UHGV virus genome: UHGV-0091736
DNA: 64,000 bases
Source: a virus
Direction: 5' to 3' (one strand)
The notes under the pieces are model-generated. The model did no database searches, was not told the origin of the DNA, and worked only from the letters and a program-made list of their open reading frames with translations. This document shows positions 2,936-7,184 of the stretch, piece after piece (the first letter of the stretch is position 1; each line of letters starts with the position of its first letter). The translations under genes were made by a program, and so were the position numbers.

Positions 2936-3187
2936 TTAAACTCCTTTAGGGAATGGGATGAGGTTTTCTACTGCAACACGAAAAGATTTTTCTACATTCT
3001 TATTCTTATAAGAAATGAATTTACCATCAGCACCACGAAGGATTACGTTAGTACGAGCTGTATTGGAAACTAAAGTGATCATAGAGATGGTGTTATTTTT
3101 TGAGTTGTTGTAGTTGTTATCGAAAGTCCACTTATCCAGACGATCATCCATTACATCAATAATAGTTACAGTTTTTACGATAGACAT
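2936..3187 (-). CDS. hypothetical protein, tandem paralog of 2650-2934
   Basis: 83 aa; conserved GKFISY and C-terminal PFPKG. Confidence 0.55.
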   Translation of the reverse strand: MSIVKTVTIIDVMDDRLDKWTFDNNYNNSKNNTISMITLVSNTARTNVILRGADGKFISYKNKNVEKSFRVAVENLIPFPKGV

Positions 3188-3222
3188 ATTTGTTACCTAA
3201 GAAGTTTAGTTTGGTTTATATA

Positions 3223-3250
3223 AAAGAAAAGGCCACCCATTTGGGTAGCC
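3223..3250 (-). terminator. rho-independent terminator after basic-protein gene
   Basis: minus-strand GGCTACCCaaatGGGTGGCC followed by TTTTCTTTT. Confidence 0.6.
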
Positions 3251-3255
3251 TTATA

Positions 3256-3573
3256 TCATGATGAGCTTAAAGCTCCTTTGCGTGCTCCAGCTGCTTTTCC
3301 AGCTCGATCACCACTTTTGCCGCCGTTTGAACGGTTTGAGCTGACTGATTCAACACGTAAGTTGCTTGACGCATTAGAGCCTCCAGACTTGATAGCTCGT
3401 TTGTGTCCAACGTCTTTACCTCTGACAGCAGCTTTTCCATCGCGCTTTTCAACGATGCGACGTGCACGGTGGCGCTGAGCATCTCCGCTCTTGCTCCCAA
3501 TGCCTGTTTCACCACGGGCAATTGCGGTACGTCTTTCTTGTGCATAATCTCTCTTTCCTACATGGTCTGCCAT
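3256..3573 (-). CDS. small highly basic Gly/Ser/Arg/Lys-rich protein (putative nucleic-acid-binding)
   Basis: 105 aa; SD AAGGAG 7 nt before ATG; G-rich first codon position; late-type TAATGTATA motif about 37 nt upstream; terminator immediately downstream. Confidence 0.55.
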   Translation of the reverse strand: MADHVGKRDYAQERRTAIARGETGIGSKSGDAQRHRARRIVEKRDGKAAVRGKDVGHKRAIKSGGSNASSNLRVESVSSNRSNGGKSGDRAGKAAGARKGALSSS

Positions 3574-3629: not shown

Positions 3630-5348
3630 TTAAGCTTTCTTTTCCATTGCTTTAACAATCGCCTTACAGAAACCAGAACGAACAATATCATCTGATTCAC
3701 CATCTACAATCTCAGCAAACTCATACAGATCATGTTCATCAATAAAGTTAGTAGCCCAAGTAAGACCACTCTCACGACCACGCATATCATGCTGGTTAGT
3801 ATCACCCATGCAGAACAGCTGAGAGGTTTCTCCCAATCGAGTCATGATTGAGAAGGCTTCATCTTTAGTTGTGTTCTGGAACTCATCCACGATAACAATG
3901 GCATCATTGAAAGAGCGACCACGGAGATATTCCAGAGGTACAAATTCAATGTTACCATTTCCGATTTGGCATTCATAGAACCCCTTACCATATCGCTGAG
4001 TAATAACATCAATGATAGGCATCAGGTATGGTTCAAACTTCTCACGCATCCCCCCCGGAAGTAACCCAAGAGAGTTACCCATGCCGACCGAAGGGCGACT
4101 CAGAATGATCTTCTGAATCTTACCACTCTTCAGTGCATCAATAACTGTGGAAGTGATTACAAAGGTCTTACCACAGTTACCTGTCACGAAAATGTTATCA
4201 TCTCGACGGAGCAACAGAGCACCTGTTGAGGTTGTAAAGCAATATTTAAAACCATCCTCCGTCTTCATCTTTGTGATCACAGCTTTCCCAGATTGTGGGT
4301 TGTTTGGGGTAATACTGATATGTGTCTGTTTAGAGAAATAAACACGATACTCTAGAGATTTACGAGTATATCCACCATACTCCCGACCAACTCTGTCGTA
4401 AGTTATGATAGATGATTTGTAACCACACTGCATTCCTACAAACTGGATATAGTCTGCATCATCTTTATCGGAAGTAAAGAAAGGTGGTAGTCTATTTCCT
4501 TGTAGGGCAAAACCCCCGTCCCAGAATTTAATCTCATCAAAGATGATTTTAGCATCACTCTTGTTACACAAAGGCCAGTCTTTATACCTTTTAGTCGCAC
4601 CTAGAAGAGAGAAAGATATTACATGAAACCCTGTATCATCTGACTTTTCTGAGTAATCTAAATGGAGAGTATCCAATAACTCTTTGAGTCGAGAAATCTT
4701 CCTCTCTTTCTTTAATCTGAAGACGAATCGCGAGGTGGACTCTGTTTCCAAGTGGGCATCAGCCTTGATGGCAACATGAAGACGTAATTCAGGTTCAGAT
4801 AGACCTAAACTTTTCCCTGAAACAAAGTTGGATGTAGTTTTAATTAGACCCTCAAACCCTATCTTCTTCTTGTGGTGCCTTGAAAGAAGATCAGATACCT
4901 TGATTTTGTTCGCTTTGTCTTTATCTCCCTTACGATAATAAACGACATTATGGTCATCACATAACGCCTGAGATATCCCACGGTATGTTTTAAACAAGTT
5001 CAACTCTTTACACTCTTGTTTAATATAAGCTACAGGTTTTTCTAAATGAGACTCTCCTGTGGTTAAGTTTACTGCTGTTATTAAATCACCTTCCACATAG
5101 TCAGAAATCTTTTTCCATCCAAACTCTGAGAGAAACTCGGTATCCTTATCAACACAGCCCGCAGGAGCGTCTGTGAACACAACTTGTTTAGTCTTAATAG
5201 CATTGAGTAGCTCAGACTGAAACTGGTTCTGAGGGACTACAGGCTTTGCTAAAACCACCTCTTCATACTCTCGCTTACCCTTACGAGTAACAAGTGCTTC
5301 CCGACGAAGGTCTTTCCGTGATTCTTTCCTTGATTGACGACGACTCAT
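3630..5348 (-). CDS. phoH: PhoH-like ATPase interrupted by an intein
   Basis: 572 aa; P-loop reconstituted as DAPAG + CGKT across the insert; PhoH motifs LSRPSVGMGNSLGLLPGG, VIVDEFQNTT, MGDTNQHD. Confidence 0.8.
   Translation of the reverse strand: MSRRQSRKESRKDLRREALVTRKGKREYEEVVLAKPVVPQNQFQSELLNAIKTKQVVFTDAPAGCVDKDTEFLSEFGWKKISDYVEGDLITAVNLTTGESHLEKPVAYIKQECKELNLFKTYRGISQALCDDHNVVYYRKGDKDKANKIKVSDLLSRHHKKKIGFEGLIKTTSNFVSGKSLGLSEPELRLHVAIKADAHLETESTSRFVFRLKKERKISRLKELLDTLHLDYSEKSDDTGFHVISFSLLGATKRYKDWPLCNKSDAKIIFDEIKFWDGGFALQGNRLPPFFTSDKDDADYIQFVGMQCGYKSSIITYDRVGREYGGYTRKSLEYRVYFSKQTHISITPNNPQSGKAVITKMKTEDGFKYCFTTSTGALLLRRDDNIFVTGNCGKTFVITSTVIDALKSGKIQKIILSRPSVGMGNSLGLLPGGMREKFEPYLMPIIDVITQRYGKGFYECQIGNGNIEFVPLEYLRGRSFNDAIVIVDEFQNTTKDEAFSIMTRLGETSQLFCMGDTNQHDMRGRESGLTWATNFIDEHDLYEFAEIVDGESDDIVRSGFCKAIVKAMEKKA
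4176..5156 (-). mobile_element. intein (327 aa) inside PhoH Walker A motif
   Basis: Begins C-VDKDTEF (block A like), TGESH (block B TxxH), ends FVTGN followed by +1 Cys of CGKT; in frame, no stops. Confidence 0.6.
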
Positions 5349-5530
5349 TTACGCTCTCCAATTTCTTCGTAATGACACTCAGTGGTTAAACAATCTTTAC
5401 AGATTGCTGTGTAAACCCTGACGTTAGTAAATCGTTTGTTCTTCCCTTTGGTTGGAGAGCCTTTGGCAAGCTCTCTGATAACCTTGTTACTTAAATGAAG
5501 GTTTGTTCCTTCACATTTAGAGCACTTCAT
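5345..5530 (-). CDS. small zinc-ribbon protein
   Basis: 61 aa with CSKC...CKDC pairs. Confidence 0.45.
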   Translation of the reverse strand: MKCSKCEGTNLHLSNKVIRELAKGSPTKGKNKRFTNVRVYTAICKDCLTTECHYEEIGERK

Positions 5531-5846
5531 GGTTCATATCTTTATGAATCCTGTAAACAGCTGTCGCCATACAAGCAACAGCCTCATTGTGTGGGAGGTG
5601 CATCCCTGTAGAACCATCCCAATCTTTGAACTCATTGTCAAAGACTCCAGTAGGCTCTGGATACAGAGCTTGCAGCTCCACTAGATCATTAGCAACTTGT
5701 TGCCATTTATCATCAGACCAGATAGGGTCATCCAACCAGTAATACAAATAGGAATGGATGATCAATTGCCTTCTGTGCCGATTAATTACTTCAGCGGGAC
5801 TTATTTCACTTCCATTTGAAGTCCTAAATGTATTACTGTCAATCAT
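5517..5846 (-). CDS. hypothetical protein with NAD-ligase Ia-domain-like motif
   Basis: 109 aa; HSYLYYWLDDPIWSDDKWQQV...LQALYPE resembles N-terminal Ia domain of NAD-dependent DNA ligases. Confidence 0.5.
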   Translation of the reverse strand: MIDSNTFRTSNGSEISPAEVINRHRRQLIIHSYLYYWLDDPIWSDDKWQQVANDLVELQALYPEPTGVFDNEFKDWDGSTGMHLPHNEAVACMATAVYRIHKDMNHEVL

Positions 5847-6061
5847 TTCACAACCTTAAATTTGAATGTTGTTGGGTGGTAATAGTGCAATCTATTGATA
5901 ATGTGCTTATTCTCATGATAGGTAATACAAGCATGGCACATGGAATGAGTTAAACCAGTTACAGAATTAGGTTTAAAGTTGACAATAGGCTTCTCTTTCT
6001 TACAGAAGCTACACACTTTATGTGTCATCAGTTCTCCAAAGTTTTCTTCAGAGCTGCCCAT
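5843..6061 (-). CDS. small zinc-finger protein
   Basis: 72 aa; CSFC...CHAC. Confidence 0.45.
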   Translation of the reverse strand: MGSSEENFGELMTHKVCSFCKKEKPIVNFKPNSVTGLTHSMCHACITYHENKHIINRLHYYHPTTFKFKVVK

Positions 6062-6684
6062 GAGATTGGGTAGAGCTTAGCCATCTCTTCATCCAGAGAT
6101 TGGGCAAACACTCGAACTTCATATTGAGCGTGAGAGGAGAGTCGCTGACGACACAACTCAAACCAGCCATACAAAGAACCGGTCCACACCCACTCAGTGA
6201 TCATTCCCTGAGGAAGAACAAATCGAGCTTGCTCTGGTGCAATAAATTCAATCAACTTGTCATATGCTGCTAGAGAAGCTTCATATGCATCATTAATCAG
6301 CATTAATGCTTCAGCTCGCTCTCCGTCAATGAGTTGAATCCCTGAACCTGCATGGAGGTCCGAAGGTCTCGCAAAAATCTCTTTAGGGATGAAGACTTCA
6401 ACTGCTCCATCTTTATACCGCCGGGACATTTCGTTCCACGAGAATCCAACCTGATGCTTGCCCAACTGTCTCGCAATTGCGATAGGTGCTTTGCATCGGA
6501 AACTGACTTGCGGGTGTCGGAATGGGGTAACATGCTTCTCTCTTGCGAGGAAGTTGATGAGACGTTCATCACGTTCATTTAAATCACCTTCACGGGTTAC
6601 GCCAAAGGAAACTCGAGCTGCGTTTACTACGCTACGATCACTTCCCATAGCTTCGATTAATGTTGCTTGTAGTTGTTCATTCAT
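6028..6684 (-). CDS. thyX: flavin-dependent thymidylate synthase ThyX
   Basis: 218 aa; KHQVGFSWNEMSRRY fits the ThyX RHRxxSxxxxSxRY signature region. Confidence 0.65.
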   Translation of the reverse strand: MNEQLQATLIEAMGSDRSVVNAARVSFGVTREGDLNERDERLINFLAREKHVTPFRHPQVSFRCKAPIAIARQLGKHQVGFSWNEMSRRYKDGAVEVFIPKEIFARPSDLHAGSGIQLIDGERAEALMLINDAYEASLAAYDKLIEFIAPEQARFVLPQGMITEWVWTGSLYGWFELCRQRLSSHAQYEVRVFAQSLDEEMAKLYPISWAALKKTLEN

Positions 6685-6699
6685 CCGTGAATTTCCTTA

Positions 6700-6909
6700 T
6701 TAATATTCTTTTACATAATAAATCACTAAGGTTCCCATCTCTGACAACGTTGATTTATGTAAGCTTATTTTACTATAAATCTTTGGAGCCATCTTAAGAG
6801 ATTTCTTAAAACGGCGAGCATCTTTACGAGTAGCAAAGTGCTCTGTGACAGGTATAGACTGGTCTTGGTGGAGATAATATACCACCGTCCAATATTTTTT
6901 CATAATCAA
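6700..6909 (-). CDS. hypothetical protein
   Basis: 69 aa ORF overlapping neighbours by 4 nt. Confidence 0.45.
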   Translation of the reverse strand: MIMKKYWTVVYYLHQDQSIPVTEHFATRKDARRFKKSLKMAPKIYSKISLHKSTLSEMGTLVIYYVKEY

Positions 6910-7184
6910 ACACCTAGGGCAGTAGTTAAGAATGCTTTCAGGTTTGCTTCGGTCTGCATACCAGAAATGCTGTAGTGTGCACCACTATTACGGTCAGGCA
7001 CAATGAAAGCAGGGATACTTCGTACACCATACTTAACAGCTTGCTCACGACCATCACCTTCAAGGATGTTAATCTCTTCCACTTCTACATCAAACTCCTT
7101 AACAACCTTCTCAAAGGTAGGAGCCATTGCTTTACATGGAGCACACTGATCACTATAAAACTTAATTACTTTAGACATTAACAA
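6906..7184 (-). CDS. thioredoxin
   Basis: 92 aa; CAPCK active site, KYGVRSIPAFIV, LKAFL; close to E. coli TrxA pattern. Confidence 0.8.
   Translation of the reverse strand: MLMSKVIKFYSDQCAPCKAMAPTFEKVVKEFDVEVEEINILEGDGREQAVKYGVRSIPAFIVPDRNSGAHYSISGMQTEANLKAFLTTALGV

Follow-up and report, generated by a model that had tools for sequence, protein, structure and literature searches.

A probable mobile intein with a nested LAGLIDADG endonuclease domain in the P-loop of PhoH from a Kuravirus-like phage genome

In the virus genome UHGV-0091736, of which we analysed one stretch of 64,000 nt (the window), the phoH open reading frame (ORF) is interrupted within its Walker A motif by a long in-frame insert, which raises the question of what this insert is and what becomes of the PhoH protein that carries it. 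A first-pass annotation of the sequence had proposed an intein, and its description of the insert (positions 4176-5156; 327 aa, running from CVDKDTEF to FVTGN before a Cys; Walker A motif split as DAPAG/CGKT, with the slash marking a junction here and below) proved exact by ORF translation. The insertion point lies between Walker A positions 4 and 5, that is, between Gly64 and the Cys of GCGKT, and the codon of this Cys (4173..4175, minus strand) directly follows the intein end IFVTGN, so that Walker A position 5, which is often Cys, Ser or Thr, serves as the +1 nucleophile. The P-loop had also been called a classic insertion site; the insert does lie in the Walker A P-loop, but at position 4/5 and not at GK/T, which is the classic intein site in this motif (PMC5050341). 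The window comes from a Kuravirus-like E. coli podophage (Gordonclarkvirinae); its first 12 kb are about 92-93% identical to Escherichia phages 1-6af, FH3, SR02, EcoN5 and others. As set out below, we conclude that the insert is very probably a mobile intein consisting of a Hint splicing domain and a nested LAGLIDADG homing endonuclease.

Evidence that the insert is a discrete element came from comparison with uninterrupted phoH genes. The whole precursor ORF matched the Pfam PhoH profile (PF02562) at positions 22-205 only (E 4.8e-50) and also matched PHROG 32482, an insert-containing PhoH family (E 3.4e-127), while the 245-aa PhoH protein without the insert matched positions 2-205 of 205 (E 1.7e-56), with its Walker A motif intact. 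When 50,697 phage genomes were searched by megablast, 80 Kuravirus records matched phoH at 96-97% identity in two pieces covering 43% of the query, and the insert itself matched no record at the DNA level; the insert-free phoH genes of these relatives are 738-741 bp long. We aligned the in-silico spliced phoH with the phoH genes of phages SU10, SR02, 1-6af and CHD5UKE1, and deletion of the 981 bp reproduced the intein-free gene exactly (…GCTCCTGCGGGC/TGTGGTAAGACC…) in these four alleles. In three of the four alleles, at least 29 nt on either side of the junction are free of differences (1-6af has one at -13), and in SR02 the identical stretch reaches 88 nt. Over the whole N-extein DNA the alleles differed at 1-5 positions, the last 153 bp being identical in SU10 and SR02, and the first 90 residues of the spliced PhoH are those of SU10 PhoH. 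The first-pass annotation had suggested alignment to intein-free homologues as a check on its proposal; with 80 Kuravirus genomes lacking the insert, the latter is not a normal domain of PhoH.

The insert also belongs to a large family of elements that occupy many different proteins. A tblastn search recovered homologues from 273 phage records, and in 262 of these the match spans all 327 aa; the genes concerned are annotated as PhoH, RtcB, primase/helicase, large terminase, ribonucleotide reductase (RNR), Nampt, polymerase and phosphoesterase. A HMMER scan of 1.84 billion cluster representatives, with clusters counted at 50% identity, returned 2,231 matches at E ≤ 1e-3, of which 381 reached E ≤ 1e-30; the top-ranking 150 of the 2,231 all aligned to insert residues 1-327 within larger proteins of 428-1,542 aa. 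We excised 162 relative inserts from such larger proteins, and the residue-conservation counts given here, as well as the family hidden Markov model (HMM), are based on these. Every one of them begins with Cys and ends with Asn (Thr-Gly-Asn in 152), followed by Cys (80), Ser (76) or Thr (6) at +1; the rule for intein termini, observed in the PhoH insert as Cys1, Asn327 and Cys+1, therefore holds in 162/162. About 125 of them are located at Walker A sites of the form G/[CST]GK[ST] and the others at the RtcB site VDIG/CGM and a few further sites. Their host proteins are mutually unrelated (RecD2-type SF1 helicases, PhoH, PIF1, DnaB/Toprim, MCM, AAA+, ABC and SNF2 proteins), and the six closest relatives of the PhoH insert are all inside PhoH. 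The presence of one element with intein-rule termini in so many unrelated hosts marks a mobile intein family and rules out a PhoH accessory domain. The family HMM further matched the TOPRIM inteins of mycobacteriophages (E 1e-46), which carry an intein annotation in their records, and the Bethlehem RDF intein (E 2e-13).

The predicted structure agreed with this assignment. An AlphaFold2 model of the insert, built on 12 sequences, reached a pLDDT of 90.7 and a pTM of 0.88, and in a Foldseek search of the PDB its best matches were TliVMA/PhoVMA (E 7e-14 to 2e-11, TM about 0.62), with further matches to PI-SceI, PI-PfuI and PI-TkoII, all of which are full inteins containing LAGLIDADG domains. The endonuclease region, which lies between the two Hint halves, found I-DmoI and I-Tsp061I at an E of about 1e-4, together with the corresponding domains of PI-SceI and PI-PfuI, and the order of its helices and strands was that expected for a two-helix LAGLIDADG repeat fold (alpha-beta-beta-alpha-beta-beta-alpha). 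Its first motif reads LRLHVAIKAD133A, and the KADAH within it also occurs in the PhoH intein of Acinetobacter phage AM24. The Pfam LAGLIDADG models did not match the PhoH intein, and LAGLIDADG_3 (PF14528) was matched by 5 of 53 relatives. In the model, then, the insert is a Hint domain with a nested two-motif LAGLIDADG endonuclease, so that the endonuclease domain previously guessed from size was borne out. The features of the interrupted gene are collected in Table 1.

Table 1. Coordinates of the interrupted phoH gene and of the features of its insert (conservation is given as the number of the 162 relatives)
Feature	Position in window	Strand	Basis or conservation
phoH precursor ORF (N-extein, intein and C-extein), 572 aa	3630..5348	(-)	ORF list
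N-extein, aa 1-64, ending ...FTDAPAG (Walker A first half)	5157..5348	(-)	Near-identical to intein-free Kuravirus DNA
Intein, 327 aa, Cys1...Asn327, precursor residues 65-391	4176..5156	(-)	Absent from 80 relatives
Block A, CVDKDTEFLSEFG, Cys1 nucleophile	5118..5156	(-)	C1 162, D3 155, T6 160, E7 161
Block B, GISQALCDDHNVVY, Cys66 at B:7, His69 at B:10, Val71 at B:12	4938..4979	(-)	H69 162
Nested LAGLIDADG-type homing endonuclease domain, about aa 100-290 (approximate limits)	4287..4859	(-)	Alpha/beta pattern between Hint halves in the model
LAGLIDADG motif 1, LRLHVAIKADAH, putative catalytic Asp133	4752..4787	(-)	D133 157
LAGLIDADG motif 2, IFDEIKFWDGG, putative catalytic Asp213	4512..4544	(-)	W212 162, D213 156, G214 153
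Block F, FKYCFTTSTGALLLRR, Cys306 at F:4 and Arg317	4203..4250	(-)	Y305 160, C306 161, F307 158, R317 162
Block G and Cys+1, NIFVTGN/C, Thr325-Gly326-Asn327	4173..4196	(-)	T325 159, G326 155, N327 162
C-extein, CGKTFVITS (Walker A second half) to stop codon	3630..4175	(-)	Pfam PhoH positions 22-205

We considered whether the insert might be something other than an intein, namely a PhoH accessory domain, a free-standing homing-endonuclease gene or an intron lying in frame, or an assembly artefact, as could be argued from its failure to match any Pfam or NCBIfam intein model. However, besides being missing from the 80 orthologues, it recurs in dozens of unrelated hosts, each time bounded by Cys1 and a final Asn and followed by a +1 nucleophile; its block-bearing N- and C-terminal parts flank the endonuclease in the model, and its best PDB matches are full-length inteins. 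Moreover, the junctions are codon-exact, and with no Rfam family matching in the region, a group I intron or another RNA element can be dismissed. Weak matches of the insert to uL24 and DUF3368 were dismissed as chance. These alternatives are effectively refuted, and the identity of the insert as an intein is supported by the precise empty sites in 80 relatives, the family-wide splicing blocks and the Hint plus LAGLIDADG model.

The splicing blocks A, B, F and G are conserved throughout the family, and in this respect a search for them, which had been proposed together with an HMM search, succeeded; the HMM search was misleadingly negative, as the Pfam and NCBIfam intein models miss the insert. 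One residue assignment of the first-pass annotation had to be corrected: it took TGESH for the TxxH block, but the spacing there is TxxxH, and its His37 is replaced in the family by E, S, T, N or K. The true block B spans G60 to Y73 (GISQALC66DDH69NVVY) with the core C66-D-D-H69, in which position 66 is Ser in 124, Cys in 23 and Thr in 15 of the relatives. Block F reads FKYC306FTTSTGALLLR317R, and we place Cys306 at F:4 from this sequence pattern and from its likeness to C124 in the AceL NrdHF intein (PMC7891396). The F:4 assignment rests on the pattern and the published AceL numbering, since a comparison by hhalign of the Hint-only alignment of the family with an approximate Npu DnaE sequence reached a probability of 1% and yielded nothing usable. 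When the last 40 aa were run by phmmer against the PDB in order to align blocks F and G with 6zgq, the AceL structure, only chance matches to clostridial cell-wall-binding repeats were returned. Of the 55 family positions with a conservation of at least 80%, the PhoH intein agrees with the consensus at 48, departing at I26, A28, S109, A134, D201, Y236 and T309; it retains every invariant residue.

In canonical class 1 inteins, F:4 is Asp, block F contains a His and the penultimate residue, G:6, is also His. Several observations speak against an intein that splices and homes. The class 1 helper residues are missing from the PhoH insert, where F:4 is Cys306 and G:6 is Gly326, and the block F His is apparently missing too, judged by the sequence pattern and the AceL analogy. 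Neither Pfam (up to E = 1), NCBIfam (up to E = 10) nor phmmer against the PDB gave a curated intein or LAGLIDADG match for the insert. Motif 1 has Ala134 where 148 of the 162 relatives have Gly (Ser in 8 and Ala in 6). No co-conversion tract was found in the flanks of the four aligned alleles, which also fits recent clean homing. Finally, the allele is known from one sequence only among the 50,697 phage records, 5,426 E. coli genomes and IMG/VR, so that purifying selection on this copy is not estimable. As to the first of these points, Gly at G:6 is a known variation among phage inteins (PMC5050341).

A rival reading is that of a decaying intein, in which the Hint domain, the endonuclease or both are inactive, so that PhoH would be knocked out or the element stranded and immobile. 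Consistent with decay, the seven departures listed above include the Gly of motif 1; an essential role of PhoH in phages is undemonstrated, so that selection for splicing could be weak; and the mini-inteins P0011 and P0012 (see below) show that the lineage loses its endonuclease. Against it, the 981-nt frame is open, the catalytic residues are kept (C1, H69, C306, R317, T325, G326, N327, D133, D213, K153 and W212), and both A134 and C66 occur naturally in other members of the family. In addition, the flanks equal those of intein-free alleles and the GC content of the insert is lower (38.6%, with 43.6% in the exteins and 42.2% in the window), which suggests a recent arrival. We therefore regard decay as improbable and the PhoH intein, going by the residues it has kept, as probably functional.

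With regard to the route of splicing, the PhoH intein combines features of two classes. It has the Cys at F:4 and the Thr at G:5 of class 3 inteins, but it also has Cys1, and its B:12 residue is Val71 (V, I or L in the family) instead of Trp. The same intein could accordingly use a class-3-type or dual-nucleophile mechanism, in which Cys306, together with His69 and Thr325, would form the first branched thioester, directly or via Cys1, before Cys+1 takes over. In favour of such a mechanism, Cys306 is conserved like Cys1, and Thr325 and Gly326 are nearly as well conserved (Table 1). The family profile, moreover, found a single solved intein by sequence, the class 3 intein AceL NrdHF-1-1 (6zgq; E 4.4e-8), whose N-terminal half it matches and which is also the best Hint-only structural match. 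As characterized by Hoffmann et al. (2020; PMC7891396), AceL NrdHF starts with Ala1 and has S65xxH68, with Met in position B:12; its essential nucleophile is Cys124 at F:4, followed by Pro128 and T144-G145-N146/S. C124A/S abolishes its splicing, and G145H kills it. The PhoH intein resembles it in the spacing of block B (SxxH in AceL), the non-Trp B:12, the Cys at F:4 with a Pro four residues after it, the T-G-N end and the lack of both helper His residues. Unlike the PhoH intein, AceL NrdHF begins with Ala, is split, with a GIY-YIG gene between its halves, lacks a LAGLIDADG domain and lies in the RNR beta subunit, and a class 3 mechanism is proven for it, not for the PhoH intein.

Further support for the class 3 alternative comes from Corynebacterium phage Darwin, whose RNR small subunit (gp74, L010:307-2175), the host protein also of AceL NrdHF, contains a member of the family. 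The family HMM matched this intein at E 3e-42, and it begins with Ala1 while keeping the Cys at F:4 (VYC…SGN/C). Its flanks (…FME/…/CVH, as compared with …RDE/…/SMH for AceL) place it, judged by the flanking residues, at the same ExxH site, and the Darwin intein is probably a cis-splicing, LAGLIDADG-bearing counterpart of the AceL NrdHF split intein. However, Cys1 is present in 162/162 close relatives, which argues that it is used; B:12 lacks the Trp that defines class 3; Cys stands at +1, a position mostly occupied by Ser or Thr in class 3 inteins (PMC5222942); and the survey made with the RDF intein assigned mycobacteriophage inteins to class 1 or class 3 (PMC5050341). A family member in the phosphoesterase of Rheinheimera phage Barba5S (L014:355-1824; 83 Barbavirus records) has Cys1 and TGN/C with Gly at F:4, and MTDG in place of YWDG as its second LAGLIDADG motif. 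The combination of Cys1 and Gly at F:4 in Barba5S indicates that the Cys at F:4 is dispensable in one lineage. On balance, we hold a class-3-type mechanism to be rather unlikely.

Most members of the family carry the two nucleophiles together, as the PhoH intein does, and some lineages have lost one or the other. When a Hint-only profile was run against 5.8 billion proteins for relatives lacking Cys1, it gave six short fragments, all with Cys1; the Cys1-less and the Cys-F:4-less members of the family were found among the cultured-phage tblastn matches. Because Cys1 is invariant, B:12 is not Trp and the +1 residue is Cys, we favour a Cys1-initiated (class 1) route for the PhoH intein, with some reservation. 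More tentatively, since the family keeps the class 1 Cys1 together with the class 3 set, the PhoH intein may use both cysteines, either in a relay from Cys1 through Cys306 to Cys+1 or as a redox-sensitive Cys1-Cys306 pair, a possibility to which we give well under an even chance.

Assuming the Cys1-initiated route, we infer splicing and homing to proceed as follows. The 572-aa PhoH precursor would be translated, and Cys1 would attack the peptide bond between Gly64 and Cys65, assisted by Cys66 and His69 of block B. The N-extein would then be handed on to Cys+1, and Asn327 would cyclise without the usual penultimate His, with Gly326 in that place, and free the intein. The product would be a ligated 245-aa PhoH with the P-loop DAPAGCGKT, whose junction would be identical to that of intein-free relatives (predicted junction peptide …FTDAPAGCGKTF…). 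In a co-infection, the endonuclease of the freed intein would cleave the unoccupied phoH site of another Kuravirus phage, and the intein would be copied into the cut phoH by recombinational repair. The putative homing target is intact in 4/4 aligned intein-free alleles, the P-loop site of SU10 and SR02 phoH reading ACAGACGCTCCTGCGGGC/TGTGGTAAGACCTTTGTA.

The clean flanks and the low GC content of the insert suggest a recent, clean gain of a foreign element. The sequence TGTG is present at both junctions (4173..4179 and 5153..5159), the intein starting with TGTGTT and the C-extein with TGTGGT, so that the point of insertion in the DNA is ambiguous by 4 nt; this repeat may be a microhomology from the invasion or simply a Cys codon plus G. 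The flanks carry no co-conversion tract that would point to a donor, and no donor or identical allele was found in the phage records at the DNA level, in the 5,426 E. coli genomes or in the IMG/VR close-relative scans. Among about 15 billion proteins, the closest relative of the intein was 51% identical to it, and no second copy was found within the window.

Among known phages, the closest counterpart is the PhoH protein of Acinetobacter phages AM24, YMC13/03/R2096 and P577 (PHROG 32482), which shares the host protein, the Walker A site and the intein family (44.9% identity over 327 aa, E 2e-78; site GFAG/…TGN/TSKT). It differs in having Thr instead of Cys at +1, in belonging to an unrelated phage and in being annotated only as a PhoH-like protein, and an identity of only about 45% rules it out as the donor. 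The Bethlehem RDF intein (C1…TANH…VWCL…HLTGN/S) and the TOPRIM inteins of Turj99 and Switzer are likewise similar in having Cys1, TxxH, Cys at F:4, T-G-N, Ser or Cys at +1 and a LAGLIDADG domain, but they lie in a metallophosphoesterase and a TOPRIM domain of actinobacteriophages and are only about 24% identical to the PhoH intein. Kelley et al. (2016; PMC5050341) found that the Bethlehem intein splices to completion, more slowly when its penultimate His is restored (G316H), and that the endonuclease of this intein has a toxic effect on E. coli. The canonical LAGLIDADG inteins PI-SceI, PI-PfuI and TliVMA/PhoVMA have the architecture and fold of the PhoH intein (Foldseek E 7e-14 to 1e-9, TM about 0.6), and like it they possess Cys1, a His in block B, Asn as the last residue and a nucleophile at +1. 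They differ from it in having Asp and not Cys at F:4 and in possessing the block F and penultimate His residues, and they are 9-15% identical to it, with no similarity at the HMM level.

Several other members of the family were observed in the course of these searches. The metagenomic PhoH proteins P0011 and P0012 (425-427 aa) carry mini-inteins at the same Walker A site (GHAG/CVDKDTEF…FITGN/SSKT) from which the endonuclease domain is deleted, indicating that the PhoH intein lineage went through the usual cycle of gain and decay. In the PhoH-like protein P0019 (579 aa), an intein of the same family is located outside the P-loop at a second PhoH site (…RTPLEAG/…/SDRIGFLP), which is the conserved motif RPxVEAGExLGFLPG. 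Proteins P0020, P0023, P0026 and P0028 each have two inteins of the family at different sites, one in the P-loop and the other after a Walker-B-like …DE/ or another motif. In Escherichia phage 19-1-2 (Avunavirus, L006:1411-3413), the large terminase is annotated as two coding sequences, 1411-2757 and 2997-3413, and the first of these contains an intein of the family at the P-loop (GGAAG/CLSKDHE…VVTGN/SGKS). The Escherichia phages whose terminase holds an intein of the family belong to the Vequintavirinae and not to Kuravirus.

In the surroundings of the interrupted gene, phoH and the small genes upstream of it overlap by 4-14 nt (5345..5348, of the ATGA type, and 5517..5530), which suggests translational coupling within a tightly packed minus-strand operon that also contains thyX (6028..6684) and a thioredoxin gene (6906..7184). 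A match to the CssrA small RNA family of Rfam at 5455..5554 on the minus strand was below threshold (24.7 bits, with a gathering cutoff of 93; E 0.028), lies within a coding region and is most likely due to chance.

The element is thus an intein of standard architecture in a P-loop, which is a known kind. What is new is, first, its host lineage, as the element was found in none of the other Kuravirus genomes of the phage collection, and second, the allele itself, with at most 51% identity to any of the proteins searched and no DNA match in the E. coli genomes or IMG/VR. A full-text literature search for intein and PhoH returned, among the matches listed, none that by title or abstract concerned a PhoH intein, and as far as these titles and abstracts go, the recognition that PhoH P-loop inteins exist is new as well.

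The family also bears on phage annotation. Vibrio phage 1271 (OZ195674, L015:1210-3864) has a protein labelled as PhoH-like phosphate starvation-inducible whose exteins are a PIF1-like helicase, and gp56 of Mycobacterium phage Switzer (NC_041985, L008:565-2106) bears the same PhoH-like label on the exteins of a Toprim primase. These two proteins share only the intein with PhoH, and about 80 Vibrio phage records carry the label, which probably spreads through PHROG 32482, a family of PhoH plus intein. As PHROG 32482 contains the intein, the PhoH-like label spreads to unrelated intein-bearing helicases and primases, and this mislabelling matters for phoH-based surveys of phage diversity and for automated annotation. 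Since the intein models of Pfam and NCBIfam do not see the family, intein censuses based on them will under-count it.

For the biology of the inteins themselves, the combination of Cys1, Cys at F:4 and T-G-N bears on the evolution of class 3 splicing, and as relatives splice fast, the PhoH intein could yield splicing tools. For the Kuraviruses, none of the 80 phoH-matching genomes carries the intein and the empty sites of the four aligned alleles are all intact, which makes this a convenient natural system, in which the homing of an intein and its effect on fitness would be measurable in co-infection of a tractable host.

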